A stretch of DNA of 64,000 nt from assembly GCF_035594765.1 (NCBI RefSeq), contig NC_085845.1:186326897-186390896 (forward strand). Reading direction: 5' to 3'. The notes beneath the pieces are model-generated. The model did not search any database. It was not told the DNA's origin and worked only from the letters and a program-made list of their open reading frames with translations. Shown here piece by piece: positions 3,703 to 59,893 of this stretch. This DNA is from Anolis carolinensis. Taxonomy: Eukaryota. Made by a program: the position numbers and the translations under genes. How positions within the stretch are numbered: position 1 is the first letter of the stretch; each line of letters starts with the position of its first letter.

Positions 3703-3880
3703 ATGAGGTGCCGCCCGTTCCCGGTGCTGAAGGTCCTGCGGAGGAAGCGCGCCCGGTTCTGGCTGGCCTTGGGGCTCCTGGCCGGGGCTCTCTGGGCGGC
3801 CTCCCTGGAGCTGGCAGCTTTGGACAGCGGAGGAGGAGGAGGAGGAGGAGGAGGAAGAACAGGACACCCCTTGAGCCGCA
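3703..3880 (+). CDS. B4GALNT3: Beta-1,4-N-acetylgalactosaminyltransferase 3, coding exon 1 (cytoplasmic tail, TM anchor, start of stem)
   Basis: ATG at 3703 (gggATG). Translation MRCRPFPVLKVLRRKRARFWLALGLLAGALWAASLELAALDS(G9)RTGHPLSR resembles the remembered human N-terminus ([42 protein letters not shown]). Donor CA|GTGAGT at 3881, phase 1. The ORF track reads through into the intron. Confidence 0.9.
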
Positions 3881-3986
3881 GTGAGTGGACCCAAGGACAG
3901 GGAGGGAGGGTGGCAATGCTGTGGCTCCATGCTGGGGCGCTGGGAAGCTTCACAAAGTCTTTCTCCATCTCTGGATGCATCTACAC

Positions 3987-4172
3987 CAGCCATGGGCAAG
4001 GTTAAGTTCTCCAGATGTTTTGGACTTCTACTCCCACCCTTCCTAACAGCCTCAGGCCCCTTCCTTTTCCCGCTTAAGCGGCTGAGGGGGAAAAGGAAGG
4101 GGCCTGAGGCTGTTACGAAGGGTGGGAGTTGAAGTCCAAAACACCTGGAAAACTTAACCTTGCCCATGCCTG
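3987..4172. mobile_element. Palindromic hAT MITE
   Basis: Fold-back structure with 8-bp TSD atctacac (3979-3986 and 4173-4180). Confidence 0.9.
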
Positions 4173-4266
4173 ATCTACACTGTCACTGTCATGGCTCCAT
4201 GCATCCAACCTACAGTATACATGTGCTCCAGGAGTCTTCCCTAGGAGTCCTTCTGAGTGTATACAG

Positions 4267-5114
4267 CAGGGGTCCTCAAACGTTTTAAGTGGAGGGCCGA
4301 TTCACAGCCCGTCAAACTGTTGGGGGGCTGGACTATGATTAAATAGTCCAAAATTAAGATTGTTGTTGTTGTGTGCCTTCAAGTCATTGCAGACTTAGGT
4401 CAACCCTAAGTTTAGGATGGAGGCCAGGTCAATGACCTTAGAGGGTGGGCCTTAGTTTGGGGACCCCTGATCTAGACGATCTCATAACACCATAGGTAAG
4501 GAAAGGGACCCTCAAAGGCCACCTAGATGGTCTCATAGGACCATAGGTAAGGAAAGTGACCTCCAAAGGCCATCTAGATGATCTCATGACCATAGGTAAG
4601 GAAAGGGGCCCTCAAAGACCATCTAGATGATCTCATAAGGCCATCAGAAGACCATAGATAAGGAAAGGGACCCTCAAAGACCATCTAGATGGTTTCATAA
4701 AACCATAGGTAAGGAAAGGGTTCCCCAAAGGCCCTCTAGACAATTACCATAAGTACCATAAGTAAGGAAAGGGATCCTCAAAGGCCATCTAGACGGTCTC
4801 ATAGGACCACAGGTAAGAAAAGTGACCTCCAAAAGCCATCCATATCAATATTTGTATGTATGTATTTTTATCCTTTACAATTTTATCTTGTAAATCGCCT
4901 AGAGCATCGTGGATGGAGGGCGATTAATAAGTAATTAAATGATGATGATGATGATGATGATCTAGACGGTCTCATAAGGCCGTAGATAAGCAAAGAGACC
5001 TCCAAAGACCAGGTAGACTTAGGTCAACCCTAAGTCTAAAAGTTAGGACAGGGTCCAGGTAAACAACCTTGGAGGACCGCATCCGGCCCACGGGCCTTAG
5101 TTTGGAGACCCCTG
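4267..5114. mobile_element. hAT non-autonomous element (CAGGGGTCCTCAAAC TIR) with two 3' ends bracketing a minisatellite
   Basis: 5' TIR at 4267; 3' TIRs end at 4469 and 5114; imperfect TSD gtatacag/gtgtacaa matches the outer end. Confidence 0.65.
4470..5010. repeat. ~51-bp minisatellite, about 8 degenerate units, interrupted by an L2-tail fragment with (TGA)n at ~4845-4960
   Basis: Unit ATCTAGAYGRTCTCATARGACCATAGGTAAGGAAAGGGACCCTCAAAGGCC. Confidence 0.9.
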
Positions 5115-5255
5115 GTGTACAATCTGTCAAGCCCAGAGTCTCCCTCTGCAAATCAAGAGCAAAGGAAAGGAAAAGGCTCACACGCAGGAGCCTGTACCAC
5201 ACAACCAAACACCTGTACAGGCAGTTCTCAAGTTACAAACAACATAGGTTCTATG

Positions 5256-6084
5256 TGTTGTCGAAGGCTTTCATGGCAGGAATCTCTGGGTTCCTGTGAG
5301 TTTTCCAATCTATATGGCCCTGTTCCAGAAGCATTCGCTCCTTAATAACATATCTATGGAAGGCATCCTCTCAACCTCAGGGTGCAAGTTGCCAATGCCT
5401 TAAATTAAGAAGTAGTTTTCTAAGATCTACAGAGATACTCACAGGAACACCTCAGCAAGCAAGAGTCCAAAAGTGGCAGGCTAAAACCCAGAACCTCAAG
5501 CCATGGCTGAGACCGGATGAGAGACTCCCTCCTGGGCACACAGAAGACTGAACAGACTGCGCTCTGGCACCACGAGGTGCAGAGCCAATCTTAAGAAATG
5601 GGGCCACAAAGTGGAGTCCACAACATGCAAATGTGGAGAAGAGCAAACTACAGACCACCTATTACAATACAACCTGAGCCCTTCCACATGCACAATGGAG
5701 GACCTTCTTGTAGCAACACCAGAGGCACTCAGAGTGTCCAGCATCTGGTCAAAGGACATTTAGTATAATGCCAAGTTTTTAACTACGTTTGTGTGTTTTT
5801 AAAAAAATTATTTTATTAATTATTTGACACAAACAATCCAATATACAATAAGAAAATATACAGTACATTCAAAAGCAATGGAACGTGTCCAGATCCGTAC
5901 TCAAATGGCAACCTGTACCAAATAAATAAGTATAACATAAATACATTACAATGGTACCCTCGGTTCGCTTCTGGCACAATAAATAAAACAACCTCTGAGG
6001 ATGCCTGCCATAGATGTGGTCAAAATGTCAGGAAAGAATGTTTCTGGAACAGAGCCATACAGCCCGGAAAACTCACAGCAACCC
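5256..6084 (-). mobile_element. Fold-back Penelope-derived element split by a Vingi insertion
   Basis: Arms at 5256-5370 and 5989-6085; degenerate TSD aacataggttctatg/aagataggtgctgtg. Confidence 0.75.
5379..5988 (+). mobile_element. Vingi/Ingi-type LINE 3' end
   Basis: C-terminus NRLRSGTTRCRANLKKWG..TCKCGEEQTTDHLL..WSKDI* (zinc-knuckle-like, stop 5761-5763); tail gcttctggcacaataaataaa; TSD caacctc. Confidence 0.75.
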
Positions 6085-6347
6085 AAGATAGGTGCTGTGG
6101 GTTTATTCTTAAATGGAATTTGTCTGTAAGTTGCAACAGGTATATATTTTAAGGTTAACTTCAGCTCTCTCTCTATGCATTGGATGGCATAGAAAAGGGT
6201 TAACACCCCTGTGGAGTTTGTTTTGCTCTCTGTGTCCCTGTTCAGAAGATTTCACCTCACTTTCTGTCCCTGCGATGAATGTTTGGTTTGTTGTGGAAAC
6301 AAGGGTTGGCAATAAAGCTTCATTGGAGACACCTTTCCTTCACAATA

Positions 6348-6670
6348 CAGTAGAGTCTCACTTATCCAAGCCTTGCTTATCCAAGCCTCTGGATTATCCA
6401 AGCCATTTTTGTAGTCAATGTTTTCAATATATCATGATATTTTGGTGCTAAATTTGTAAATACAGTAATTACAACATAGCATTACTGCATATTGAACTAC
6501 TTTTTCTGTCACATTTGTTGTATAACATGATATTTTGGCGCTTAATTTGTAAAATCATAACCTAATTTGATGTTTAATAGATTTTTCCTTAATCCCTCCT
6601 TATTATCCAAGATATTCGCTTATCCAAGCTTCTGCCGGCCCGTTTAGCTTGGATAAGTGAGACTCTGCTG
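6348..6670. mobile_element. Tc1/mariner MITE, same family as 658-980 in opposite orientation
   Basis: TIRs, TA TSD, identical length of 323 bp. Confidence 0.85.
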
Positions 6671-6874
6671 TAACTCTTTCAGGAGTGAATTTTCTTTCCA
6701 AGGGGTAGATTTCTCTCACTTCATGTTGTCTCACCCCCTGATCTTAACTATGAGTCATTTGTAAGTAAGGTGCTTGTAACTCAGGGACGGCACAGGAGGC
6801 AGAGAATATAATGCCCATTCTGGATCCATTTACACATCCCAGAAAAGTGAAAGGAGCTCTGGAGAAAGCAGGTA

Positions 6875-7062
6875 CAGGTTGTGCATCCCTTATTCCCAAA
6901 TCTTCCAAATTGTCATCATGAGAGGCTGAGATAATGACACCTTTGTTTTCGGATGTTTCAGTGCACACAAACTTTGTTTTTGATGCACACAATTATTAAA
7001 ACACTGTGTATAAAATTACCTTCTGGCTTAGTGTATAAGGTGCATAAGAAACATAAATGAAA
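6875..7062. mobile_element. Degraded Tigger4/MER46-like DNA transposon fragment
   Basis: TA|CAGGTTGTGCATCCCT start and internal cacaaactttgttt..tataaaattaccttc..gtgtataaggtg..aaacataaatgaa, as remembered for MER46-type elements. Confidence 0.5.
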
Positions 7063-7999
7063 TACACCACGGGCAGAGAAAGGGAGCCTTACAGCACCCC
7101 GATCACCTTAACCCAGCCTTTGATAGTGTGTTGATAATACAGCTGTGGAGAACCAGCATGGTATAGCATTGGGACAACAATTCAGGAGAGTTTGAATCCC
7201 TGTCAGGCCATGGAAACCACTGGGTGAGCTTGAGAAATTCACACGTTCCCAGTCTCAAAGGAAAGCAAAGGCAACCCAACAACAAACAACAAGGAAGTAA
7301 TGGGTTGGACTGTAAGGCATACAACAACAACATAGCTGTGCCTTATAGAATGATTGCTATATATGTGAAGTACTTTAAGCACTTATGGAAAAGGCTATGT
7401 AAATGTGTATTAATTTTATTAAGATGTACTAAATCATCTAGTCTTCAAAGATCCACATGGATACAACATTTGAAATATAGTGTGAAATCTTTCTTGAGTC
7501 TAAATGGAAGCTTTCTCCAAAGAAGCTACTATTTTGGAGCAGACATTTTAAAAGCATAGAGGCTGGATGGTCATCTGTCAGGAGTTCTTTAATGGTTTAT
7601 TCCTGCATGGAAGGAATGGATGGGCCAGGTAGCCTCATCAAACTGTGATTCCACATATTCAAATACATTGACTTTGCTTAAGTTTGGAGTTGTCTTCCTT
7701 GGAGTTAAATGTGTTTTCAATCTCAACCCTGTTTTTCTCAAGGAGCTTCCCAAGATCATGATTAAAGAACAACAATTAAAAACTGACACTTTGATAATAT
7801 AGATTTTTGCTTTCTCATCAGACAATGAACTGAAATTAGCAGACTTAGAAGTGGCATATATTGATTCTTTCACTATGATAGAGAGCTTTTCTGTCTTTTG
7901 TTGTCAGACCATTAATTCATCCAGACTATGGTGTTTAACTCTTATTGGCTATATTTCTCCACTCTTATCAGGCTGGATTCTTTCCTAGTTGTACTTGAA

Positions 8000-8238
8000 T
8001 GTTTGTCAAAGGCTTTCATGGCTGGAATCACTGGGATGCTGTGAGTTTTCTGGGCAGTATGGCCATATTCCAGAAGCATTCTGTCCTGATGTTTCACCCA
8101 CGTCTATGGCAGGCGCCCTCAGAGGTTGCCTGCCATCCTTACAACCTCTGAGGATGCCTGCCAGAGATGTGGGTGAAACGTCAGGAGAGAATGCTTCTGG
8201 GACATGGCCATACACCTCAGAAAACTCACAGCAACCCA
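8000..8238 (-). mobile_element. Fold-back Penelope-derived element
   Basis: Arms ~8030-8128 and 8142-8238 are inverted copies; the left arm has a ~30-nt extra terminus. Confidence 0.85.
8145..8185 (+). ncRNA. Minimal type I hammerhead ribozyme motif (Penelope-type)
   Basis: CCU-CUGAGGA-U-GCCUGC(CAGAGAU)GUGGGU-GAAA-C-GUC-AGG: conserved boxes intact, 3-bp stem I, palindromic ACGU in place of stem III. Confidence 0.7.
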
Positions 8239-9856
8239 AAGATGATAATGCTTGGTTAGGCAGAAAGTAGTAGGAAAAAGGGATCGTCATGTTATTGTGG
8301 ATAGACCCAATCAAGGAAGCAATGGACTATAATTTGCAAGACTTGAGCAGGGCGATGTATGACTAGGGAACTTGTAGGTCTCTTTCACAGGGACAAGATA
8401 AATCAGTTTCAGGGCAGAAAAAATAAATGGATTAATCTCCTTAGACCATGGAATTGGAGACCAACTACAGTAAAGACGATTAATAGCCAATAATAAAGAC
8501 ACATCAAGGACTGGATAAATTTCCATTCTAAATAAAGTTCTCTGGAAATATACCCACTCAACACAATGAGACCTATATTATACTAAATGTACATGGGATT
8601 GCGTAAATGATTTATTCTTCTCCAGTGATTGTGTGAAGATCAGGAAGAGGTCAGCATAAGTTTAATAGATTTTCTTGCTGGTACTGCGCTTTGGATGGCT
8701 TAGCTTTCCATAAACCTTTTTTGTACTGTAAATGATCAGACAAGCAGTTTTATGAGGGGAGGTGTGTCAGCTTGCTCAGTTATATCTCTTTAAACTTTCA
8801 TATACATGGACTGTTCTGGTATGAATGTAGTGAAAATGTGGCCCTTGATCTACATCTTTGAAAAAGTCCTCCTCTCCCATAATTTCCAGGTGATTTCCTG
8901 CCCCTCCAACTGCAAGCAGACATTGCATTTTGCTGCCCAGAGAAGGATGTTTCTCAGCCCACAAACAATACACACTGTACCCTAAGCCAGTCAGAATATT
9001 GGTCCTTGTGTCAACAGAACTGACGAGTACCTCTCCTTGTTTTCCTGGCAGGAGAACTACTGTAAAAGCTAAATAATAACTAATTGTTTTGTAATAGTAC
9101 CTGGGACAGTTACATCTTTTTTGCCCAACCTTCATAGTTTAGTGTATGCAGTTGTTTCTGCTAAACAAGCTGTTGACAACTGTGTGGGATTCTGGACTAG
9201 ATACATCTTTGGCCTGATCCAGTATGGCTTTTCTTAAGTTCTTAGAAAAACGCTCTATTGAATTAAGTGAGTTCTACTATCAGATAGGTATGTATAGGAT
9301 TGCAGCATGCTGTATGTGTTTTAGTCAGTGGATTGTTAATTCCATTTGATAATCATATACTTGCATATAAAAATATATATAATAGTTGTAAATAAAAAAG
9401 CAAATACATGTTCAGATAGACAGGCATCATTTTCAAAAATGAATTTTCTCTTTTCTTTCACATAGGATAGATAACAGGCTCTTTTGAAATATGTTGTGTA
9501 ACTTTCTATAGAAAGTAGATAATACAATCACCCTCACCCTGACATTCATAGGTTTCTCTTTCATAGATTTGATTATTTGTGAGTTTGTGGTTGCTATTTA
9601 ATTAGCACAATCTCGGGATGCACCTGTAGGACTGAAGTAAATAGGCTCACTTCCATTGTATATGCATCAGTTTTATATTATTGACTGTCCTTGGAGGCAG
9701 AATTTCATAATTTTACACTTGAGCAAAAGCTAAACAGGGCCAGCATTTTATGATATATATGAATAATATATATACATGTGCACACAACATACATACATAA
9801 AAGTGGGTACATTCCCTTGCTCTAACACAGAGGTAGGCAAATCTAATGATCTAAGG

Positions 9857-10219
9857 CAGGAATCCTCAAACTTTTTAAGCAGAGGGCCAGTTCACAATCC
9901 TTCAGACTGTTGAGGGGCCGAATAATCATTTGAAAAAAACAAAACAAACCAACTCCAGAGCGCACTGCACATGTCTTATTAGTAGTGTAAAAAACAACAA
10001 CAGCAACAACAATGAAAGAACAATGCAATATTTAAAAATAAAAACAATTTTAACCAACATAAACCTATCAGTATTTCAATGGGAAGTGTGGGCCTGCTTC
10101 TGGCCAATGAGATAGTCAAGTTAATTAGGATTGTTGTTGTTGTGTGCCTTCAGGTCATTTCAGAATTTGGGCAAGCCTAAATCTAAAACTGAGGGTGGGG
10201 GCCAGTTTGAGGACTCCTG
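9857..10219. mobile_element. hAT non-autonomous element
   Basis: TIR caggaatcctcaaact/agtttgaggactcctg; perfect 8-bp TSD atctaagg. Confidence 0.9.
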
Positions 10220-11304
10220 ATCTAAGGAGTATAGTATTTTGTTCCTCATGCAATTGCTGAGCCATACTGCTTGACACTCCAGTTTGAATCCTCCCCACCA
10301 CCTTGCCCTTGTGTAAAACTGTCTCTACAGAAACACCCTTCTAACATATTTGAATCAGTTCTACTTTCTTTTTTTTTCTCCTGGCCTAAAGCATGCCGTG
10401 GAGCTGAAAGTTTAAAATATTTCTGGGAGTACAATATGCCATTTTGGGCCCATTTTGGTCACTCTACATTGCCCTGCTCTAAAGTACCATAATTGTAGTA
10501 AGATGCAATGCAGTTCTAGGTATGCTTACTCAGACGGAGGTTTGCCAGAGCTAAGCATCCCGGCTCCTCTGTTACAGTGGGCGGTGGAATCTCAGGGTGC
10601 TGGTTTGAATATAATTGCTATATGTTGTCGGCTCTTGCTTCTGCAGGCTGTTATAGGGTGACTACTGTAGACAGCCTAAGCCATCTCTTCCCCTCCCTCC
10701 TCCCACTCTCAAAAGTGTCTCAAGCAATGGCTAGCATCAGTGCTCTGCAGGAAAGAGCAGTTAAGAGTGTAAAAATACTGAGCGACCTCAGTGTCTGCTG
10801 CTTCAGACTACAGCACTCCAGAATTCATGCTTCGTGGTTTTTCCTGTGTTGTTGTTAACTTTCCTGGTTCAGTTTCCTTCTTCTTCCCACTATCTTAAAT
10901 GGTTGAAGCCACAATACCATTTCCTTTTTGGGTTGGGTTGCACTATTGTTAGCAGAAAGGGTGGTATCGGTCTTCCTTCTTTGGTTTTGGACAGGAATTT
11001 GATTTCTTTCTCTTTTAATCCATGAATTCACTTTTCTCTTTTTCTTTTTGGTTTTAATTCTCTTTCTTTCACCTGCTGTAAATCTCTTCCTTTCTTTTTG
11101 CCTTTTTTTTAATCAAAGCCCTTTTTGTTCTGTTTCCCGCTCCCACAACTCTTGCTCACACAAGAAGCATCATATTCTCCTCTGCTCCTTACTTCTACCA
11201 TCTTTTTCACTTGCTTCTCCTTCTTCTGTGACACCAACTCCTGGCTGAATATATTCTTGTGACACTATTCTCTTCTTCTCCCCCACCCGTCCACAACTCT
11301 TGGT

Positions 11305-11540
11305 ATTTTATTTATTATTATTATTTACAGTATTTATATTCCGCCCTTCTCACCCCGAAGGGGACTCAGGGCGGATCACATTACACATATAGGCAAACAT
11401 TCAATGCCTTTTAACATAGAACAAAGACAAGACAAACATAGGCTCCGAGCGGGCCTTGAACTCATGACCTCCTGGTCAGAGTGATTCATTGCAGCTGGTT
11501 GCATCTGGCTTGCTCTCCAGCCTGCGCCACAGCCCGAGCC
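11305..11540 (-). mobile_element. L2-tailed tRNA SINE (Anolis SINE2 type)
   Basis: Reverse complement of the element at 38500-38700. Confidence 0.85.
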
Positions 11541-11733
11541 TGTAAAACCTCTTCTCCTAACTTTCCTGCTTTGAGCCCCATCTCTGCACCTTCTGCTTCA
11601 AAGTAGGACAACTGGAGAAGGGCTGCGCAATTGTGCAAACTGCCCCCCACCCCGGGAGTTTTTAGAAATTCAAAATAAATGTAATATTATGTTGAATATG
11701 CAATCCAGTAAAATGTAAGTTCTCTTCCTAGGG

Positions 11734-11851
11734 CAGGCATGGGCAAACTTTGGCCCTCCAGGTGTTTTGGACTTCAACTCCCACCATTCCTAACAGCCTA
11801 CCGGGAGTTGAAGTCCAAAACACCTGGAGGGCCAAAGTTTGCCCATGCCTG
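11734..11851. mobile_element. Palindromic hAT MITE (CAGGCATGGG TIR)
   Basis: Long TIRs; TSD tcctaggg/ccctaggg. Confidence 0.9.
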
Positions 11852-12290
11852 CCCTAGGGAATGTTGATTGCCATGTTGATTGCCTTTTTATATACCTCCT
11901 CTAACTATTGAACTGTCTGGCATTTCATACTGCAGTTACAGAGTTGTAACCTATAGTTCCTGATCCATAAAATAAAGTTATAGAAACATATCTTCTCTAT
12001 AATTTGTACAGCTAAGCAGTGTTATTACATAGTTGCTAGCAGACACATTGGCAAACAAGTTCGATTCCATTAGCAGTCCAGACACAAAGTTTTTGCTGTT
12101 TCCAGTTCTTTAATATGGCTGTGATGAAGAACTAAGAAAGGAGTTCTGCTTCCGGTTTTCACAGCTTTGCTCACTGGTGGGAAAATGCTGGAATCATCCT
12201 CCTACTTTTCCCCAACTAGACTTCCTTCACCCAATGTAGCTGCTGGCTGTTAAAGTGGATTTTAGGAGTGATGTGTGGAAATGCTACTTA

Positions 12291-12592
12291 ACGTAAAGGT
12301 TTTCCCCTGACTTTCAGTCTAGTTGTGTGGCGGTTGGTGCTCATCTCAATCTTTAAGCCAAAGAGCCGGTGTTGTCCATAGATGCCTCTGAGGTCATGTG
12401 CCCAGCATGACTGCATGGAGTGCTGTTACCTTTCTGCTGGAGCGGTACCTATTGATCTACTCACATTTGTATGTTTTCAAACTGCTAGGTTGGCAGAAGC
12501 TGGGGCTAATAGCGGGAGCTCCCCCGCTCCCCCAATTCGAACCGCCAACCTTTTGGTCAACAAGTTTAACCTGCTGCGCCATTGGGGGCTCC
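12291..12592 (-). mobile_element. Sauria-type SINE
   Basis: Reverse complement of the other copies; TSD-like aaat(g/a)ctactta. Confidence 0.85.
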
Positions 12593-12850
12593 TAAATACT
12601 ACTTAGTTACGCATATATAATTAAGTAAATGATTTAGAATATTGGTGATTATTCCTGAAGTTGTTACATCACATATTTGTATAATCTCTGTCCTGGGTAT
12701 TTAATATGTATTTTATAGAAAAATGTTTTAATATGTATCTTTTATAGAACTACATTTTAATATGTGTGTTTATAGAATTTCTGCAATGTTTGTGTGTTTT
12801 GACTGTGCTGTGACCTGCCTCGAGCAACAGGGAGAGGCAGGTAAAAAAAT

Positions 12851-12891
<41 letters not shown>

Positions 12892-15632
12892 GGCAGTTTT
12901 ATTTTTCTATTCCTTTTAATGGATCTTATGTGGAATTTGCCTTTTTTATATCATGCATATGATTGAGGTTTCCATTGATGCCAGTATCTCTTTATCAGTC
13001 ATTCATTGCCATCTCAAAGTCCATCAATGCACAAGCGAAGTTCCATTATTTGGTACCAATTTGTGTGTTAACATTCAGAATAATCTCCAGAATAATGGAA
13101 CAGCGATACTTCCTGTAATCAAATACTCTTAAGAAATTTTTAATGCAAAATTTTTTAATTGCAGTCTATTAAACATAGAGTTTGTATAAGTAAGTATTAT
13201 CTAAATTTATAACACAATACCTCAATTTTCTATGTGCTCATTCAATAAAACAACAAAGAGTCTCGTAGCTTCTTCGAGATGAAAAGTCCACTTCAGAGAG
13301 AGGGCATCGTCAAATGCTTTCCTCCCTGGGAACTATTTCTACTGACTTTTGTGGTCATTTAAAAAGGTTTAAGATCTTTTGTGTTTTATAAATTAATATT
13401 ATTTAGAGTGAATTAGACTTTCAAATATGCAAATGTTCAAATATGAAGACAGTGTGGGAATGCCTTCAAATCTGCAATTACTTAGAATTTATTAGAGAAA
13501 GGATCTGCATTTCTAATTCTTCTGAACATACAGTATAAAACATGGAAATGAGTAGCATACAACTATAGCACCAAGTGAAATACATATAATGCAAAGAAGT
13601 AAAGGAAATGGATACTTCAAGCATTTTGTGAATATTTTAATGCATCTTTGTTTCTAGTTCTTGATGCATGTGTTGTCAGGTGTATGTGTAGATAATGAAA
13701 AATAGTCATTGTATTTTCTAATTGCAGGTTAGAGAGACAGGTTGTAATTTCATAAGAGAAACAGATCAATATGTGTTAAAGAAAAAGAAAATAAATATAC
13801 CCTATAATCAAGTTACAATTTGTGGACGGGATGGAATTAAAAGTATTTCTGTCTTCAAAAAGATATATATGTATAGTGTTTTGAGAAATTAATCACAGGC
13901 AGTCAATGAGACTTATAAAGTGTTGACTGGATCATATTTATACTAACAGAAGGAGAAAAAACACCACAATACAATACTTTTGAATCTAGGAAAGTAAGGC
14001 TTCTCTGTCTTTCAGATGCAATATATGCTGTCCTGTTATAAGCTCTACGTAAAACTAAAGAAAAATCCATCCTGTGGTTATAATTGAGGGTTGGATTTAT
14101 TTTAATTTTTTTGCTTCTTTTCCCTCTTGTGGCTTCTGGAAGCAGCCTTGAAAACTGCCAGGGCAGCCATGGTACCAATAAAAATCTATTTTGACTCATA
14201 GGAATGAAAAACAAGTCATTTATTTTCCTTTTACTATTTTAGTTCTGCCAAATGTCCACCTTTTCCAGGTAAAAGCAAGAACTAGTTGTTGTTTTTCTTT
14301 GTAGTTAAGGCAGTCTCAGCTGATGGGGACAGAGCCTTGGGAATGATGTTGTTCCAAAATATTTTTCTTTCTCTGAATATATTTTTTAAATCTTTCTGCG
14401 CAGTCTCCCAGGTGGGAAACCCAGTGACAGCACATAATTGGGCGCCAGCCAGAGTTTCTCTTGTTGCTTTTGCTGATGCAATAGCCTCCATCAACATTCG
14501 TTGTTCTAAAACCCAAAGGCCGCTTTCCCCTCCAGTAGTTTTCCAAGGCTGGAAGTAGACTTACAACAGATCATTATTTCCATTTATGTGTTTGCATTTG
14601 CAACAGAAAACCCTCTGTTCCAATTTCTCTGGAGGTATAGATGGCACTTTCGTACGTGTTAGGGCTGTACTCTGTGTGTTTACATCCTGTGTAAACACTT
14701 AAATTTTTCGCTCTGGATTAATTTATAAACGCTGCCACTTGTTTCTAATTCTGATCACAGGAACAATTCTGTAATGAGATAATCCTAATAGATCATCTAA
14801 AGGAGAAAGAAACCATCCTTTACCATTCTTTACCTAGAATGACTGAAAGAGGGCAACTAATTTGTCCTAAATAATTTTTCATATTCTTCTCTGGAAGCAC
14901 TGTTTGACTCTAATATGATAGTGCTAAGGTTTGGTTCCAGGACTTTATAAAATGTACAATTAATTGTAAACCTATATCATAGGATCCACACATATCAGTT
15001 TGACTTGCTAACCAAAGCTCCCCTTCCCAATGCTGCTAATTCTGCTGGACCTCTAGCAGGCATATGGATATTTTAGTTCAAATTGTAGTGCAATCAAGAA
15101 CCTGTCTGAAATTTTTGGAAGGGTAGAAGTGACAGCAGTCATTGACAAAGAGATGAGAGGAATCATAGGTGTCTGTCTGTGGTATATCACTCTCTGTGTG
15201 ATCTCCCCATCTTTAAAAAGATACTAAAGACCATGAAAGACCACACAAAAGAATCAGAAAATAGGCCCTCTTCCCTGCTGTTTGGCAGTGGAATATGCTC
15301 TGCCTCAGAGCAAGGTGGAGCCTCCTTCCTTAGAGATTTTAAAGCAGAGGCTAGATGGTCATCTGTCAGGAGTGTTTTGATTCTGTGCTCTTGCATGGCA
15401 GAATGTGATTGGCTTGAATGGCCCTTGTGGCTTCTTGCAACTCTATAAATCTTTGATTAATCCTTTCACCCCACGTTTTCAGCTGCTTTTAAATTGCCCC
15501 AGTTTCTCTTTTCTATTCCAACTTTTCCCTTTCATTGTCAATTTACAAAGGCAAATTGGTGTGTTATCTTTCATTAATTATGTATGCCATCTGGCCGCAC
15601 TCTGATATTGTTTGGCTAGCTACATGTATCTT

Positions 15633-15965
15633 ATAGGAATCCCTGTGGCCAGCGGGTTAAATCAGTGAGCTGCTGAATTTGCTGACCGAAAGGTCGGTGT
15701 ATCAAATCCGGGGAACAGGGTGAGCTCCCACTGTTAGACACAGCTTCTGCCAACTTACAGTTCAGAAACATGCAAATGTGAGTAGATCAATAGGTACTAC
15801 TCTGGCGGGAAGGTAACAGTGCTCCATGCAGTCATGCCAGCCACGTGGCCTAGGAGGCATCTATGGGCAACGTAGGCTCTTTGGCTTCGAAATGGAGATG
15901 AGCACGAACCCCCAGAGTCAGACACGACTAGACTTAATGTCAGGGGAAAACCTTTACCTTTACCT
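15633..15965 (+). mobile_element. Sauria-type SINE
   Basis: Full length, (ACCTTT)n tail, TSD tacatgtatctt. Confidence 0.9.
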
Positions 15966-15977
15966 TACATGTATCTT

Positions 15978-16072
15978 GGGATCTTGTGTGGTTTCTGAGC
16001 TGTATGGCCATGTTCTAGCAGCATTTTCTCCTGATGTTTCACCTGCATCCAGGGCTAGAATCTTCGAAAGAT
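15978..16072 (-). mobile_element. Penelope end fragment (variant subfamily)
   Basis: ctgtatggccatgttctagcagcattttctcctgatgtttc; flanked by catgtatcttgg copies. Confidence 0.7.
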
Positions 16073-16431
16073 CATGTATCTTGGTTTTTATCTGTGAATT
16101 TTCAAAGGGCATGGGATCTTTAACTTGGAAAACGTCAACAGGGATATTGTGATAGCACAGGACCAGAGAACGTATTGGTGGTCTATATTTCCCATGAGCC
16201 CTAGGCCACCTGTACACTGATGAGGATGTGATGGTGAAATTGGTCGAGCAGAAGATTCAGGACAAAGGTGCTCTTCTAGGCAGTGCACAATTAACCTATG
16301 GACTTTTATTGCCATAGGTGACTGACATTTAGATAGCTGTAAAATATGTATAACCAGACAAATCTATCAAGAACAGACATTTCAATAATTATGTCTGTTT
16401 AGTACCTTCCATGTTCCAAGGTAGCATATTT

Positions 16432-16462
<31 letters not shown>

Positions 16463-16924
16463 CAACACTTTATTTATATTCTGCCCTTCTCCCCGACTCA
16501 AAGCAGAGTTCAGCATATGAACAGACATGGGCAAACATTCAATGCCTTGTTACAATGAAATATAGTGAGACACAAATACACAGACAAAGGCAAAAGCTTC
16601 TCCTTTCATTTCCGGCTCTGGAGGCAGCGCTCATTTCTGGCTCTGGGGGAAGTACTCTCCTCCATTTCTATTTCCAAGCCCAGCAGCCTGCGTTGTCACC
16701 TCCTGGTCATGTGGCTGGCATGACTGCTTAGAGTGTCTTTTTGCCTTTTCTCATCGAAGCAGTACCTATTTATCTACTCAGATTTATATGTTTTCAAACT
16801 GCTAGGTTGGCAGGAGCTAGGGCTTACAGCAGGAGCTCACCCGATCCTGCGGATTCGAACTGCCAACTTTCAGGTCAGCAGTTCAGCAGCACAAGAATTT
16901 AACCCATTGCGCCACCGCAGCCCC
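16432..16924 (-). mobile_element. Chimeric SINE: Sauria-type head/body with an L2-type tail
   Basis: 16700-16924 matches Sauria SINE; 16468-16548 matches the SINE2/L2 tail including ggcaaacattcaatgcc. Confidence 0.7.
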
Positions 16925-17505
16925 TATTTTTAAAATGGGTGTTGCTGGAAAGCAAATTGTAGGAAAAAGTATAGTTTCTTCTGCTACTTCTGGGTTTCCC
17001 AGAAACATCTGTGAAATTTGATGCTATCTGTATAGAGCTTTGCTTGATCCAGCAGTTGTCTTCTTCTTTTTTAAAATCGTTTTCTTTTGTCATAAGACAA
17101 GACGAGACAGGTTAAAAGTAGAAAATGCTGGGTTCACATTCCATTTCAAGGAGAGTGGATTTCTGTGTCAGTTTTGATGGAATGAAAGCCACATGGAATT
17201 CTGCAGAATCAGTGCAAGAATTGCAATTTACAATGCTGAGCTTTGAAATGTGTTATTTGTGTCCTATGGAGAAAGCAAAGATCCTAGTTCTTAGATTTTT
17301 ATTTTGAGGTGGGGTTTGTTTTTGTTTTGTTTTTGTTTCAAATACAGTATCTTCAGTTTTATTTTTCTGGCCCTTTGGCTCTGAGCAACTCTCATTTCTG
17401 TTTGTACACTATAGATTGTTTGTGTACAATAGCAAAGTTAAATTGCAACTACGTATTTCCTTTTGCTGTTGTTATTGCAAGACACCTCAGAGAATTTCTA
17501 TAATC

Positions 17506-17639
17506 CAGGCATGGGCAAACTTTGGTTCTCCAAGTGTTTTGGACTGCAACTCCCACAATTCCTAACAGCCTATCGGCTGTTAGGAATTGTGGGAGTTGTA
17601 GTCCAAAACACCTGGAGGGCCAAAGTTTGCCCATGCCTG
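17506..17639. mobile_element. Palindromic hAT MITE (CAGGCATGGG TIR)
   Basis: Fold-back; TSD ctataatc/ctataacc. Confidence 0.9.
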
Positions 17640-17857
17640 CTATAACCACACTGTAGGACTAAAATACTAGATGTTACTGTGCAAGATATGCTTTAGGGAA
17701 CCTGAAATCAAGATACCTTTATGTAAAGCGATTTGAGCAAGAAGCATGTGGAAATCCCAAGGATGTGTTATAGACAAATTTAGGAAAATCAGCACTCTGC
17801 ATCAGAAGCAGGGAGAAAGTCCTTTGATTTTGTAATACTGCTTTAATAACAAAAAAA

Positions 17858-18180
17858 GCCCCTGATGGCGTAGTGGGTTAAACCGCTGAGCTGCTGAACT
17901 TGCTGACCGAAAGGTTGCCGGTTCGAATCTGGGGAGCAGAGTGAGCTCCCGCTATTAGCGCCAGCTTCTGCCAGTCTAGCAGTTTGAAAACATGCAAATG
18001 TGAGTAGATCAATAGGTACCGCTTCTGTGGGAAGGTAATGGCGCTCCATGCAGTCATGCTGGCCACATGACCTAGGAGGTGTCTATGGACAATGCCGGCT
18101 TTTCAGCTTAGAAATGGAGATGAACACCAACCCCCAGAGTCAGACACAATTAGACAATGTCAGAGGAAACCATTACCTTT
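17858..18180 (+). mobile_element. Sauria-type SINE
   Basis: Colinear with the 24406 copy. Confidence 0.9.
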
Positions 18181-19570
18181 AACATAAGAAGATCATTGAA
18201 CAAGAATACGGTACTGACAAAACTACATCTACTTGACAGATTTGCAGAATATGTTGTATGCAATTTTCAATGTTCAGCATCGTTCACTGTCATTACTTGG
18301 CTTGCATTGATAGTAATCCTGCAGATCAGGTCATATTATTTGAATAGTATTGGCATAAGAGCTGAGCTGGCACTTCACTTAAGGTGTGTTTCCCAAGACT
18401 GTAATAAGCGGTTCCCAACCAGTCTTAAATCTTGTTCAACTGCTAATCTGACAGATTAGTTGACAGATACCAAACATTTCTGGATCGCTTTTGATTTACA
18501 TTTGGAGACATGGGACCAATCCAAATATGACAAAACACCTTCATGAAAGCTACATTGCTATTGTGTAATCAATTGTGCACTGAGATTGCCACCTGCATCT
18601 TGCAGATTGGTAACCTGAGATGTTCCTCATAACAGGTTTTCAGCCTACGTGGAGCCAGTTAAATAGGTAAGGAAACTATCACACATTTGACAATCAGTAA
18701 ATGTGGTGAGATGTTTGCAACTATAGCAAATCTGTTGGCCAATTTTCTGTCTTCTGGTGTTGGCAAACATTACCCAATCCCTAAATGCCAAACAAAAAAC
18801 CCACACATGGAAGTTAATATCTTGTTTTAATATTTTAATATTAAACAAACTTCTTTAAAATGCCACTCCTAAAATATTCCAGGAAGGGGAAATCAGAAAG
18901 GGGGCATTTAGGAAATGTGGGGAGATCTATTAATTAGATATTTTAAAGTATAATTTCAAAGAAAGGGCAGAATGGAAGAAGAAGAAAAAGGATGAATAGA
19001 TTGTGATTATAAATTATATATTAATATAAGAATACCATCTTTCAAACACACATTTTCTTGCAGTTGATATCTAAAAATACATGTTCATATGTAGCCACAG
19101 CAGTAAGAACTTCTGGCCATTGAGGTGAATGAATGAGGTGCTGAATGTTTGTATTGCCAACTCTGGAGTCAAAGACTTTAAGCAAAAGTAAAAACCACAT
19201 TAACCATCAGTTACATTCCTTATTGGAGGAATATATTTTAACGTACACGTACATCTACAGATGCCAAAGATTTTTCTAACACAAAATTAGTATGTTATAA
19301 TAAACCCACCCAGAAAGAGGTAACCATCAAACACACCCACACCATATGGCACAGGGAAGCACTTCTATAATACTTTACCAGCATTTAGCTGATGGGGACA
19401 CTTTCTTTCCATGGAGGTATAATACAATCCAATATACCTGAAACATCAGTTTTTTGCTGGACCAAATGTAATTTTAGTTCTGTGAAAAAAAATGAGATAT
19501 TGAAACTAGGGCAATTTCTCAGTAGTTAATTTCTGTGGAACAAACCTTTATCCCACTCTATTCTTACTTT

Positions 19571-19903
19571 GGAGCTCCTGGTGGCACAGCGGGTTAAACC
19601 ACTGAGCTGCTGAACTTGCTAACCAAAAGGTCGGTGGTTTGAATCCCGGGAGCGGGGTGAGCTCCCACTGTTAGCCTCAGTTTCTGCCAACCTAGCTGTT
19701 TGAAAACATGCAAATGTGAGTAGATCAATAGGTACCACTCCGTCGGGAAGGTAATGGAGCTCCATGCAGTCATGCTGGCCACATGACCTTGGAGGTGTCT
19801 ATGGACAACACCGGCTCTTCGGTTTTGAAATGGAGATGAGCACCAACCCCCAGAGTCGGACACGACTAGACTTAATGTCAGCGGAAAACCTTTACTTTTA
19901 CCT
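19571..19903 (+). mobile_element. Sauria-type SINE
   Basis: Full length; TSD-like tattctta. Confidence 0.9.
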
Positions 19904-20039
19904 TATTCTTAATTCATGAACATTATTTATTGCATTTTCCAACAGAATTTAAAAACTAAATTTGTTGATTTCATTTTCTCTGAGGATTTCTTCATGGTTC
20001 CAACATGGCAATAGAAACGGCAGTGCTCAGGACTGATAG

Positions 20040-20339
20040 TACAGACCAACAAAAATATTTTTCTTTCTTGATGTCTTGTTTTTAGGCCTGTTCCTGGAGT
20101 TATTTGGGGCGCTGATTCAGAAAATTGCATTAGATAGTCCGATTCAGCTCTTGTTTCTTAGATATGATTATCATGATTCTTTATGGGCAAGCAGATGAAG
20201 ACTAGTATATGGACTATGTTCTGTATCTCAAAAACTAGAGCTGATAGGGGGAAACTGGTGCTATTTTTGAACTCAGCAAATCAAATATACCCAGAAACAG
20301 GTCTAACATTTAAGGCACCAAAATGTGTGTTGGCCAGTG
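20040..20339. mobile_element. Chapaev3-like non-autonomous DNA transposon
   Basis: 3' end GTTGGCCAGTG and subterminal tatctcaaaaactagagctgatag; 5' end degenerate. Confidence 0.5.
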
Positions 20340-20540
20340 TAGCCTATAAATAGATACTATATTTTGTAATAGTGCACCTATGGGTACCTGATTCATTACT
20401 TACCATATTGAAAACAATAAGAATTCTTCATCTGGATGTATCAATTGATCCAAAGTATAGCCACAGTCAATCCATTTCTTCCATAAGAAGGACTATCTTG
20501 CAGTCGTTAGCTTGGGTTATCTGATAAAGTTGGTTCAGCA

Positions 20541-20671
20541 CAGTGGTTCTCAACCTGTGGGTCCCCAGATGTTTTGGCCTTCAACTCTCCGAAATCCTAA
20601 CAGCTGGTAAACTGGGATTTCTGGGAGTTGTAGGCCAAACCATCTGGGGATCCACAGAATGAGAACCACTG
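20541..20671. mobile_element. Palindromic hAT MITE (CAGTGGTTCTCAACC TIR)
   Basis: TIRs; TSD gttcagca/gtttagca. Confidence 0.9.
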
Positions 20672-22129
20672 GTTTAGCATGACCAAATCGCACTGTCTCA
20701 GAGGAAGGCAAAAGGCAACCTCCCACTGTATAAATGCTGCCACGAAGATCCCATAATAGAATTACCTTAGAGTTGCCATGTCAGAAATTTACTTCAAGGT
20801 ATACAACAGCAACGACCTAATCTCAAGAGTCTTAAGGGATTTGTGGCCTCAGAAACAGCCTTGGGGCATGGACTTCCGGGTCTTTATTTTCCTACCCTTA
20901 GCCTATATAGAACTACTTCTTAGGTAGAAATCTTACCTGAGACCAGATATAACAGGTACACCATGGTTATAAAAGCTTTGTCTTAAAGGTTCTGCTCTCT
21001 TTTGGCATAGAATATATCATCTTGTCTACTGTTTGTTTGATGTGATTTATATCAGCATGAACTTTGTTTATGCTTACCAAGATTGCCCTAAGAACTGTTG
21101 GAGGCCACAGAGGTTACATCTTCGTTTGCAATTTGAGATGTGTGCTGATAGAAAGCTAATCCTCTTCAGAAATGCTGTGCTATCTATTGTCTGCTCAACC
21201 CATGCTGTCCTTCATTGCGACCAAGATTGCTAATCTTGGGGTCACTGGTGTTATCATTGCTTCTCACTTCTTAAGTTTCTTTCACTCTTTCAATGTGGAG
21301 GAGATATCTCGGCTTTCTCTAATGAGTAGCAGGTACAAGTATGGCTTCGTGTCTCTTCAACCCATTTGGTTAGGATTAGACCTATCTTATCTTTCCGTTT
21401 CAGTGTATTTTCCTTAATAAAAATTTGTTTTCTTACTTAAACAATAATGTGGACTAAATGTGAATGCATTTTGGGAGGGAAGGCAGGCTTTTTAGTTCAC
21501 CTGATGTTGAAAGGGTCTTGATTCACTTATACACAAGCTGTGAAGATCACATGTGGCTATCAAGAACCATGGTTTGAACCAATGTTTTAGAGTGAATATG
21601 CAAGTCATGGTGATGGGTGAACCTTCGGTAGCCTTAACTATGCTTGTGCCTATAGAATGACCAAGGTATGGCTAAGTCAGGTGTGAAAAAGAGGGGAAAA
21701 TTACAAAGAAGACAGACTGGGAACGATAACATGCGTGCCCACGATTTTGTAAATCATAATCCGCAAGTAGCTGTGTTATGTCTGCTCTTTTGCTTCACTG
21801 CTACAGTATGTAATGTCTGCCCCAAGTGTTACTGCTCTTTAGGACAGTGTCTCTTCTGACATATTTTTTTTTCTGATAATGATAAAATGGATTTCATCAC
21901 CATCTCTATTCCTAATCAGCAAATATCTATTTAGAGGACGGTTTGCAAAACATTTGTCAGCCTGTGAGACAGAATAAAACAGAAGTTATAAATACTATTT
22001 ATTATATGAAAATGAATCTTACATTGAGCTTTGGGTCTCATTGCACAAAGTGGGGTACTACAATAGAAATGATGTGCAGAGATTAAGGTCCCCAGTAGAA
22101 TGGCATGGGTGCAAATGGTGGCTTTTAAC

Positions 22130-22282
22130 TTTGAATTTGTTTTAATAGTTTTAACTGGGAATTTTAAAATCATTATTATATTTAATCCTCTTTTAATGTT
22201 CATATATTTGTATATTTTAAATGGTTATGATGCTGCTGTTATGTTAAGCTGCTTTGAGTCCCCTTGGGGGAGATAAAGTGGG

Positions 22283-22323
<41 letters not shown>
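22130..22323 (+). mobile_element. L2-type 3' tail ending in (AAT)n
   Basis: taagctgctttgagtccccttgggggagataaagtggga followed by (AAT)n. Confidence 0.65.
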
Positions 22324-22324
<1 letters not shown>

Positions 22325-22470
22325 GGCAGCAAAAGGCCACCCTACTCGGATCTGCCCGCATTATTCGCCAATAGATCATATAGCTGTAAACACTTGGGAA
22401 TTGTCTGACATGTGATGCAGTACAACAGCCAGTATAGTGATCTTGTTTGCTGTGTACTCATCTTGTTGTG

Positions 22471-22475
<5 letters not shown>
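22325..22475 (+). mobile_element. Dong/R4-clade non-LTR retrotransposon 3' fragment within (TAA)n
   Basis: QQKATLLGSARIIRQ C-terminal motif; (AAT)n on both sides. Confidence 0.7.
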
Positions 22476-22524
<49 letters not shown>

Positions 22525-23497
22525 GGAATCTCATGCATTTAAAATATGGAAGCAAAAGAGGCAGAACATTATATTGCATATATTTATTGGTAAAGAAAGT
22601 AGAATTAAATAATATTTCCAACAAAGAAATCAGTTTTGATGTTGGTGAAATCTTTAACAGCTTTAATGTTTAGTGCCACCTTGTACAGAAATGCTGAAAT
22701 GTTGTTTGCTGTCAAGTTGACTGAGTTATGACAATGCTTTGAATGAGATTTCTCTGGTTATCAACTTGCCCTGCATAAGTTTTGCAAGCTTTCTTACTGA
22801 ACCAATTCACCAATAGTGTGGTATCCCACTTTGCTTACTCTGCAGCAAAGGCAACTCTCTTTTTCTAAAGAGAAAATAAATGTGTGTGTATGGTACAGTA
22901 TTAGACAAAATGGTTCAGTAGTTACCAGTGGAATACATGTCCTCTGTCAGATGGCAAATTTCTGCCGTTGTGTTAATACAAAGAGATGTGCCACTTGCCA
23001 AGAAGGAAAAGTGAAATCAGTTACCTATATCGCCTTCAAATGTTATGGATAATGTTCCTTTTAGCTGTTCTCTTTCTTTTTTTGTGCTCTTTAAAACATC
23101 CCGTAGCAGCAACACCGAGGACTCAGAAAACTTAAGGAAAAACTTACTGCCGTGTCATTTGGACTGCATCCCTCCAGTTCTGATTAACACCTTGAAAAAT
23201 AAACAGAGGATTGTGCATCTGTCTGTCTCCCCATCACCACCCTGGAATATATAATTTTGCTAACAAAATGAAAGGGAAAGAAAGGACCCTGCCCAAATCT
23301 ACCCTTCCCTGCTTTCCACGACTTGTCTCTCCACATTTCTTTGAAAGGTGTGTTATTTTTTTCTGTCTGTCCTATGACAATCTGACTATTGAAAGCTTCT
23401 GCCTCATTTCCACATTTGAGCCACTGCTCACCTTTAATGCAGCCACACCCAGTCTGTCTGAAGGTTCATATAATTAAAAAAAAACATGAACAAGGAA

Positions 23498-23985
23498 GAA
23501 TCATAGACTCATAGAGTTGGAAAAGACCTAATGGGCCATCCAGTCCAACCCCCCTGCCAAGAAGCAGGAAAACTGCATTCAAAGTACCCCTGACAGATGG
23601 CCATCCAGCATCTGCTAAAAAGCCTCCAAAGAATGAGCCTTCACCATACTCTGGGGCAGAGAGTTCCACTGCTGAACAGCTTTCACAGTTAGGAAGTTCA
23701 AGTGGAATCTCCTTTCCTGTAGTTTGAAACCATTGTTCCGCATCCTAGTCTCCAGGGCAGCAGAAACAAGGTTGCTCCCTCCTCTCTATGACTTCCCCTC
23801 ACATATTTATACATGGCCCTCATTATGTCTCCTCTCAGCCTTCTCTTCTGCAGGCTAAACATGCCCAGCTCTTTAAGCCGTTCCTCGTGGGACTTGTTCT
23901 TCAGACATTCCAGCTTGTCAACATTTCCCTTAAGTTGCAGTGCCCAGAATTGGACACAATAATCCAGGCAGAATAGAGGGGTAGC
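23498..23985 (-). mobile_element. CR1 LINE 3' fragment
   Basis: Reverse-strand (ATTCTATG)-type tail and typical CR1 ORF2-end/3'UTR sequence. Confidence 0.85.
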
Positions 23986-24405
23986 ACGCTTGAAGAAAGT
24001 GCTAATGACATTGGATTACCCTGGAATTCCAGTCTCCTGATTCACAAACACACACTCTGCTAAGCAAGAACCTTCGTTTGAACCAATGTTTTAGGTGAGC
24101 CATGGTGGTAGGTGGGGTCAATGTATATCAATTTTCTCTTTCATAAGGCCTTCCTATATCAGGGTAGGGAAGCTTCCAAATATGAGCAACTGAACATTGA
24201 ATCTAATTTGTCCCCCAGGGATTTTGAACTCTCCCTTTGCAATTAGGAGTAGTGGGGAGGCCCCATTTTTGTAGATAGAACATCCCTGTCCCAAAAGCTC
24301 CATTGTCTCATAGGGGGGTCGTTTTAGCATCTGGAGAAAAGACTTACCTTTCCCTCATGTTCTGCCACCTTCTCCTGTAATTAGGAAAGTCTAATTACAT
24401 AATTG

Positions 24406-24733
24406 AGGGCCCCTGGTGGCACAGTGTGTTAAAGCGCTGAGCTGCTGAACTTGCAGACCGAAAGGTGCCAGGTTCAAATCCCGGGAGTGGAATGAGCGCC
24501 CGCTGTTAGCCCCAGCTTCTGCCAACCTAGCAGTTCGAAAACATGCAAATGTGAGTAGATCAATAGGTACTGCTCCAGCAGGAAGGTAATGGCGCTCCAT
24601 GCAGTCATGCCGGCCACATGACCTTGGAGGTGTCTATGGACAACGTTGGCTCTTCAGCTTAGAAATGGAAATGAGCACCAACCCCCCAGAGTCGGTCACG
24701 ACTGCACTTAACGTCAGGGGAAACCTTTACCTT
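24406..24733 (+). mobile_element. Sauria-type SINE, young copy
   Basis: Perfect 14-bp TSD taattacataattg. Confidence 0.92.
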
Positions 24734-25744
24734 TAATTACATAATTGGATTTTTCCCCTAACACTAATTGTTAGTTGCTGGTGGTTGGGAAAGAAGAGTA
24801 GAAAGAGAGGAAAGAGATGGAGATAGTAACAGAGAGAAAGCAAAATAGCAGGGAGCAAAGAGGGCTGGAAGGGGGAGAAGATGGTTAAGGGAAGGAAGAG
24901 AATGAAAAAGTAAGAGGTGCGAAAATTCTGTATTGTGTCTGAATTACAAAAATACGGACAATATCAAAACAAAGGGAAGCAAAATCACTCAAAACACATC
25001 TCTAATTGCCAGTGAGTTGGAAATTGGCCTCAGAGGAAAGTTGTCCTCTGAGGCCAGTTTTTCCTGCAAAGACGCAAAGTATAAAGATATATTTCCTGTG
25101 GGAGTTTAAAACACCTTTCGTAAGAGCAAGTAGGATTGGCTGTGAAGAAAGCAGACATTAAGTTGAAGACTATCTTGAATGTTGTCTATCTTTGGAAGTA
25201 TACTTCTGGAATTAAAGCAGATTTAGGAAAAATATATTTTCATGGAGACTTCCTGAAATAGGAAGCGTTAACTTCCTTATATGGCATACTCCCAAACTTA
25301 GAGCAAGCAAGAGGTGGTTTATTGTGGTGGTTTATTTACATTTTTAACTAGGTGTGGATCTAGTTTAATCTTAAATTTTCACAAGAATTTGAATATAAAG
25401 ACAGCCTTGTTAACTATGAAGTAAATTCCAAAGTCCATATTGTGATAGTTTCTTTATTAGACCGACCAAACAGCGCAGAAACCTCAGCTTTTGAAACAAT
25501 AGACATCTTCATCAGGCAAAGAAAAGCATATAGCAGGGGAAATAGGGTAAACAGATGTAAGCCTAAGTCATCTTGTTACTCCTGAGTACTCTTATCAATA
25601 GGAAAGCTAAATCAATAGGATTTACCTATATATGGAATCTCTATTCAATAATGGATTAATGGATCTACTTTAATGGTGATTGAACTAATAAGAGGCCACC
25701 AAGTTACTCTTTGAAACTTGGTGGTATGTTGTTAGTTCAATCAC

Positions 25745-26078
25745 TATCAAATATTAAATATTTGAAAGGCTGTCATAAGGGAGCAGGCATGTTTTCTGCT
25801 GCCCTGGAAACTAGGACTTGCAGCAATAGGCTCAAATTACAACAAAGAAGATTCCACTAGAACATCAGGAAGAACTTTGTGCTCTTGTGATCATAGGAGC
25901 TGTTCAACAGTGGAACTCTCTGCCTCGGAGTGTGGTGGAAACTCCTTCTTTGGAGGCTCTTAAACAGAGGCTGGATGTTCATCTGTCTGGGGTGTTTTGA
26001 TTGTGCTTTTCCTGGATGGCAAGGGATTAGACTAGATGGCCCATGTGTTCGCTTTCAACCCTATGATTCTATTATTCT
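25745..26078 (+). mobile_element. CR1 LINE 3' fragment
   Basis: aaatatttgaaaggctgtcat..gattccac..ctatgattctattattcta. Confidence 0.85.
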
Positions 26079-26880: not shown

Positions 26881-27180
26881 GTCTAATTGTGTCCGACTCT
26901 GGGGGTAGGTGTTCATCACCATTTCTAAGACAAGGAGCCGGCGTTGTCCATAGACGCCTCCAAGGTCATATGGCCGGCATGACTGCATGGAGCACTGTTA
27001 CCTTCCCGCTGGAGCGGTACCTATTGATCTACTCACATTTGCATGTTTTTGAACTTTGGGTTGGTAGAAGCTGGGGCTAACAGCAGGAGCTCACCTCACT
27101 CCTCAGATTTGAACTGCCAACCTTTCCATACACAAGTACAGTAGCTCAGTGGTTTAACCTGCTGTGCCACCGGAGGCCCC
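26881..27180 (-). mobile_element. Sauria-type SINE lacking the normal tail
   Basis: Reverse complement of the other copies. Confidence 0.85.
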
Positions 27181-33050: not shown

Positions 33051-33073
33051 TATTAAAAATAGTAATGAAAAGT

Positions 33074-40603: not shown

Positions 40604-40607
<4 letters not shown>

Positions 40608-40653
<46 letters not shown>

Positions 40654-49643: not shown

Positions 49644-49677
<34 letters not shown>

Positions 49678-49682
49678 AATGA

Positions 49683-50101: not shown

Positions 50102-50103
<2 letters not shown>

Positions 50104-50147: not shown

Positions 50148-50150
<3 letters not shown>

Positions 50151-59871: not shown

Positions 59872-59893
59872 AGTGAGTTAGTATCTAGCTATA

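Follow-up and report, generated by a model that had tools for sequence, protein, structure and literature searches.

Minimal hammerhead ribozymes (min-HHRs) of metazoan Penelope-like elements were defined by Cervera and de la Pena in 2014 (PMC4209133). According to the accessible part of that paper, they number thousands per genome and mostly represent dispersed, single copies from truncated elements, with pairs on opposite strands also reported. The Schistosoma min-HHR showed no activity as a monomer and low activity as a dimer, and the pair G10.1-C11.1 is highly conserved among min-HHRs as a consensus trait that lies outside the search descriptor. A hammerhead has also been described in the Penelope-like element PAc (Poseidon_Ac), which is expressed in Anolis carolinensis (Frangieh et al. 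2024, PMC11167929). In the sections of that study available to us, the PAc ORF begins at stem II, cleavage occurs 26 nt past the start codon, and a downstream stem-loop is accompanied by a tail ending at +118. The PAc hammerhead did not cleave without the PAc protein and cut with the protein in vitro; the likely protein-binding region lies within the first 172 nt. Both DNA strands were cut and extended in vitro, insertion in vitro did not depend on cleavage, and the study reported no RNA-seq reads with a start or an end at the hammerhead cut site. Published insertions carry an adjacent inverted 5'-truncated copy, mostly in head-to-head orientation, and a 30-40-bp tail that is often present at one end only (accessible parts of PMC8557442 and PMC3846280).

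We analysed a 64,000-nt window of the Anolis carolinensis genome, in which a first-pass annotation had placed an intact hammerhead core in the sense strand of B4GALNT3 intron 1. The gene context was confirmed by tblastn of P0001, a B4GALNT3-family protein from Anolis carolinensis, which located exons 1 and 2 on the + strand (Table 1) and the remaining exons in further pieces of the genome (L048-L051). When the downstream exon was used as the query, it matched beta-1,4-N-acetylgalactosaminyltransferase proteins of Anolis carolinensis, other reptiles and birds (most named "3"), the best match being P0001 (97%). The hammerhead lies 4.3 kb into intron 1 in the sense orientation. A literature search found no study of this intron locus.

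Table 1. Features of the hammerhead locus and its host gene (positions in the 64,000-nt window)
Feature	Position	Strand	Basis or remark
B4GALNT3 coding exon 1, residues 1-59	3703..3879/3880	+	tblastn 100% to P0001; GT donor at 3881
B4GALNT3 intron 1, ~58.5 kb, 3' end approximate	3881..62392	+	no exon of P0001 matched between residues 59 and 61
B4GALNT3 exon 2, residues 61-94	62393..62494	+	tblastn 100% to P0001
Left arm, antisense PAc fragment, -12 to about +118/+123 of the ORF start	7995..8128	-	
Junction between the arms, 12 nt (hairpin loop region)	8129..8140	.	
Right arm, sense PAc fragment, -13 to +84/+85, without tail	8141..8238	+	
Minimal type I hammerhead	8145..8185	+	core-pattern match, folding, comparison with full-length PAc, anatomy in PMC4209133 (accessible part)
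PAc ORF start codon (A9, bulged U, G10.1)	8154..8156	+	cut position 26 nt past the codon, in agreement with PMC11167929 (accessible part)
RNA hairpin predicted between the two arms, 93 pairs, 13-nt loop	8027..8243	+	folding

Several other repeats were observed in and around the same intron. A GGA repeat in exon 1 (3829-3853) encodes a run of glycines that the Sceloporus protein lacks and that is different in Anolis sagrei. A direct duplication with a spacing of 247-263 nt (2607-3016), containing two PAc fragments (+24 to +87), lies ~700 nt upstream of exon 1, an irregular tandem array with a unit of ~50 nt (4482-5017) is located early in intron 1, and a PAc endonuclease-region fragment with ~92% identity to many genomic copies is present on the - strand of the intron (54701-54955). 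SINE-like repeats of ~300 nt were found at 1085-1814, 15635-15960, 17857-18182, 19573-19898, 24408-24733 and 61636-61961; some of these are inverted, and they could give rise to additional long-range duplexes within intron 1.

All of the motif coordinates given by the first-pass annotation proved correct, including the boxes CUGAGGA (8148-8154) and GAAA (8175-8178), the cleavage triplet GUC (8180-8182) and both stems. Stem I (8145-8147/8183-8185) consists of 3 bp and closes the motif, and stem II (8156-8161/8169-8174) consists of six pairs, three of which are G-U wobbles. A bulged U is present at 8155, between A9 and 10.1, a C is present at 8179, and the palindrome ACGU (8178-8181) constitutes one half of helix III. 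The motif contains all of the core boxes (C3-U4-G5-A6-N7-G8-A9, G12-A13-A14-A15.1 and U16.1-H17), the unpaired base and the long helix II, and its topology is type I, with a palindromic 15.2-16.2 and without a monomeric helix III; the cut site is predicted to follow C8182. The motif shares with min-HHRs the long helix II, the short helix I, the base between 9 and 10.1 and the palindromic 15.2-16.2, but it differs from them in the absence of G10.1-C11.1 and in a helix I of 3 bp, compared with 4-5 bp in Schistosoma (PMC4209133, accessible part). At this position, the pair G8156-U8174 (G-U) has replaced G-C; no report on the effect of G10.1-U11.1 on the cleavage rate was found in the literature searched, including the accessible part of PMC544870. 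The first-pass annotation had also described the motif as the only copy in the window with all core boxes intact. It is indeed the sole match to the core pattern on both strands of the window (142 N at 33222-33363 are unreadable), but "intact" applies to the catalytic boxes only and fails for the 10.1-11.1 pair, so that the copy is slightly decayed, and the rarity implied by the claim was not supported, as described below.

A loose core pattern yielded 28 matches in 100 shuffled windows (0.28 per window), and the case for the motif therefore rests on homology, which is strong. A scan with hammerhead models, which had been suggested as a check, was negative: no hammerhead family in Rfam matched at the motif with E values up to 10. 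Rfam miRNA matches were below the gathering scores and reflect the long hairpin described below, which led us to reject a miRNA interpretation. The conserved hammerheads in amniote introns are of the HH9/HH10 type, which are single-locus, conserved and fold as monomers. They resemble the B4GALNT3 motif in being hammerheads in a host intron, but the latter belongs to a high-copy repeat and shows no monomeric helix III, no stable monomer fold in the predictions and no match to an Rfam hammerhead model.

Sequence comparison shows that the motif is the hammerhead located at the pLTR/ORF start of PAc (PMC11167929, accessible part). It is identical at 39 of 41 nt to the hammerhead of a full-length copy with an 846-aa ORF, which bears out its initial assignment to the minimal type I hammerheads with a palindromic helix III that Penelope-like elements carry. 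At other places in the genome, two 846-aa ORFs begin in the same motif, with an ATG made up of A9, the bulged U and G10.1, and place it in the pLTR of an RT/GIY-YIG element. A Pfam scan of one of these ORFs detected RVT_1 and no endonuclease match; the GIY-YIG motif was recognised by eye. The PAc features found include the ATG at the start of stem II, the cut 26 nt downstream and a tail located between two RT start sites, one of which, at +84/85, is suggested by the ends of the copies. The letters past the cut site match by eye the stem-loop of Fig. S1B in PMC11167929, as far as that source is accessible. In the window, there were 18 BLAST matches to the 271-nt element, self-hits included. The B4GALNT3 copy thus shares with published PAc (PMC11167929, accessible part) the element and motif, the ORF start at stem II and the cut position. 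It differs in being a decayed fragment pair of ~240 bp without an ORF, with older-subfamily letters, and in having G10.1-U11.1, one change in loop II and an adjacent antisense arm. By these sequence features, the motif is a min-HHR of Penelope-like elements, specifically of PAc, that has lost G10.1-C11.1. Elsewhere in the genome, two partial tandems that mirror one another occupy C1:293255001-293272000 (L046/L047), and in each of them an open 846-aa PAc ORF begins in the hammerhead; judged from its sequence, this pair is a young insertion whose two ends differ in the tail as those of head-to-head pairs do.

The inverted arm that the first-pass annotation had placed upstream of the motif (~8030-8128) was recovered in the self-alignment as an inverted stretch at 8032-8128 with 87.6% identity. 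The left arm carries a tail of ~34 nt (about 8003-8037), and the hammerhead within it is disrupted at A9, the bulged U and G16.2; the right arm contains older-subfamily letters at +58 to +85. As in the insertions described in the accessible parts of PMC8557442 and PMC3846280, an inverted 5'-truncated copy lies directly upstream and the tail is one-sided, but both arms at B4GALNT3 are only ~100-130 nt long, and the whole insertion therefore constitutes one hairpin. The sequences flanking the insertion showed no evident target-site duplication. In contigs from four sequencing runs on 7300-9300, none of which is recorded as RNA, the element was swamped by other repeat copies, so that the contigs do not inform on ends, strand or level; the depths of the left/right flanks in these contigs were 14/11 (X1), 17/78 (X2), ~5/6 (X8, partial) and 8/12 (X15) and were given no weight as evidence. 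None of the joints listed represented an empty allele, and no listed joint skipped the whole element.

To place this layout in context, 1.244 Mb of sequence was surveyed, comprising an even sample of the genome, the gene region and the window. Fifty-two of the 107 PAc copies sampled were in head-to-head pairs, and the orientation of the pairs was divergent in 26 cases and convergent in one. In each of the 19 resolved pairs, one arm had the tail and the other lacked it (p = 2e-6 versus an expectation of 50%; 7 of 26 were unresolved). This suggests, from the sequences of the copies, that each PAc insertion may use both RT start sites, one per end. In the resolved pairs, one arm ends near +118 and the other near +84. 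Head-to-head pairs in the window are located at 262-430, 7995-8238 and 48253-48487, and more are present in L048-L165. The arm identity of 87.6% equals the median of seven pairs with at least 95 aligned letters (from a comparison of 15 rows, of which two at 100%, possible self-alignments, were left out), and a specially selected hairpin was rejected because this identity is typical of PAc pairs. Since either strand of a head-to-head pair reads the antisense arm and then the hammerhead, the order of the two at B4GALNT3 is a property of the PAc family.

A 35-nt core pattern with two degenerate places had 19,563 exact matches in the genome (9,859 + 9,704), compared with none for a backwards control pattern, and the 41-mer of the B4GALNT3 locus itself occurs at 28 places. 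In a survey of 100 evenly spaced 10-kb pieces of the genome, 12 of 31 core-spanning copies retained all boxes and the central CG, corresponding to 0.77 box-intact copies per 64 kb; a single such copy in a window of this size is therefore the norm. This first test of intactness considered boxes only and ignored stems, which were added in a second test: 8 of 13 pattern matches retained both stems, including seven with G10.1-C11.1, and seven of the eight were unmasked, whereas one was masked by an upstream arm. Better candidates than the B4GALNT3 copy are therefore common. In addition, short tandem runs of intact hammerhead cores were found at C1:1062636-1063873, C1:2664324-2664877 and C1:360781150-360781280, with spacings of 220, 173 and 90 nt, respectively; by sequence, these resemble retrozyme arrays and appear to be far better candidates for dimer cleavage. 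A non-LTR retrozyme at B4GALNT3 itself was rejected, because the locus is a single head-to-head pair rather than head-to-tail tandem repeats with hammerheads.

The decay of PAc copies mainly consists of CpG loss: 33 of 120 core CpG sites were changed, and T at the 11.1 CpG was observed in 9 of 31 sampled copies and in 24 of the first 100 matches listed. This dominance of CpG loss accounts for U11.1 at the B4GALNT3 copy. Non-CpG changes in the even sample affected 14 of 300 core positions (4.7%) and 46 of 719 flank positions (6.4%; p = 0.31), and those around the gene affected 9 of 187 and 38 of 456, respectively (p = 0.13); the two samples were kept separate and not pooled. The deficit of change in the core is not significant, although it is in the direction expected of constraint, and the requirement that alignments span the core may be its cause.

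The first-pass annotation had proposed that the arm transcribed first could sequester the motif in a ~95-bp hairpin. The folding predictions agree with this: 7995-8245 (251 nt) folds at -174.3 kcal/mol (z = -21.8), and the left arm pairs with 39 of the 41 bases of the motif in the predicted hairpin (Table 1). With stems I and II of the hammerhead forced, the energy was -117.7 versus -174.3 kcal/mol, a cost of ~57 kcal/mol. In transcripts ending at 8170 to 8195, the probability of stem II rounds to 0 at each tested length; without the left arm, it is 0.02-0.04. However, nearest-neighbour folding leaves out tertiary contacts, proteins and helicases, and it also disfavours the hammerhead fold of the young copy (-17.0 versus -25.3), which is nevertheless known to cut with the protein. 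The models therefore show masking and do not prove inactivity. Within these limits, the hairpin is predicted to be an off state rather than a switch.

Long intronic duplexes are typical ADAR substrates, and the 93 predicted pairs, the 13-nt loop and the z-score raise the question of whether the locus acts through its long double-stranded RNA, as a target of A-to-I editing or a source of small RNA, rather than through catalysis. Any editing of adenosines in the core would impair the ribozyme still more, and an effect of the duplex is compatible with the relic interpretation favoured below. Nevertheless, 18 such tight pairs were present in the 1.24 Mb sampled, meaning that the site is not special, and we consider this explanation unlikely.

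Whether the motif could find a partner for dimeric cleavage was also considered. Four other core-spanning sense copies exist in the gene body (at 5988, at 48390 and two in L050), all with core changes, and none of these four provides an intact sense dimer partner within B4GALNT3. The forced double hammerhead reached -13.5 versus -27.3 for the best dimer fold, and the duplex of the left arm and the motif reached -82 kcal/mol. Occasional cutting in trans with a free PAc transcript and the PAc protein, as a leaky by-product with no selected host role, could be envisaged, as the boxes and palindrome are intact, full-length PAc ORFs exist in the genome, PAc is expressed and its hammerhead cuts with the protein in vitro (PMC11167929, accessible part). 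These folding energies nevertheless argue against it, and the right arm covers only +1 to +85 of the ORF, compared with a likely protein-binding region within the first 172 nt in the same source, a shortness that would probably hamper protein-aided cleavage. Leaky trans cutting is accordingly rated as improbable, somewhat more so than an effect of the duplex.

The proposal of the first-pass annotation that went furthest, a conditional self-cleavage site in the host intron, is not supported by these results: the hairpin was predicted to be favoured at every tested length, the gene contains no intact sense partner, and the parent PAc ribozyme was reported to be inactive without the PAc protein (PMC11167929, accessible part). 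In its strongest form, in which a co-opted site would tune B4GALNT3 pre-mRNA when the hairpin opens, this idea draws on the sense orientation, the position early in a long first intron, the intact boxes and the precedent of conserved intronic hammerheads in amniotes (PMC6765202, accessible part). It is opposed by an energy gap far exceeding that of a switch, by the lack of special rarity or of excess arm identity, by an arm-first layout that is a family trait and by the decay of the 10.1-11.1 pair. A G10.1-U11.1 pair would be expected to lower hammerhead activity. We regard co-option as the least probable of all the readings considered. A variant extends the idea to the whole family: the antisense arm of head-to-head insertions would serve as a safety catch that silences the hammerhead, masked sense-strand copies in introns would survive while unmasked ones were purged, and the B4GALNT3 copy could be unmasked and would cut when PAc RNA and protein were abundant. 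This is also very improbable, if marginally less so, but if it were true, the output of host genes would be coupled to transposon activity in thousands of introns of the lizard.

The analysis showed that the motif is that of the PAc pLTR/ORF start, that it lies in a B4GALNT3 intron, that its copies are numerous and that the insertion is laid out head to head. From these observations, the locus is very probably an ordinary transposon relic, whose hammerhead is a likely silent passenger in the predicted hairpin. In the proposed sequence of events, the PAc protein would have cleaved the two strands of the DNA and started one short cDNA at each of its two internal start sites; we infer this double priming at two RT start sites from the ends of the arms together with the cutting and extension of both strands by PAc in vitro. 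The cDNAs would have ended at about +118 and +84, and their truncated ends would have been joined head to head, leaving B4GALNT3 intron 1 with two 5'-truncated PAc fragments in head-to-head arrangement. Both arms would then have decayed like other copies, mostly at CpG, the boxes of the right arm being kept by chance. In the pre-mRNA, the antisense arm would be made first and pair with each motif base on its emergence; lacking both a free intact partner and the PAc protein, the motif would stay uncut, and the intron RNA would be removed by splicing and broken down.

The ribozyme, the element and the inverted layout have all been published, and the locus is one of ~20,000 copies; it therefore matters little in itself. 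The one-tail rule bears on the open mechanism of Penelope-like transposition, although the one-sided tail was already known qualitatively. Related retrozymes are reported in a 2026 preprint to be mildly depleted from Xenopus introns (10.64898/2026.07.22.740005, accessible part), which makes a comparison of strand bias in the anole worthwhile. The anole genome represents a large natural test of whether latent intronic ribozymes are tolerated or purged, by strand and by masking.
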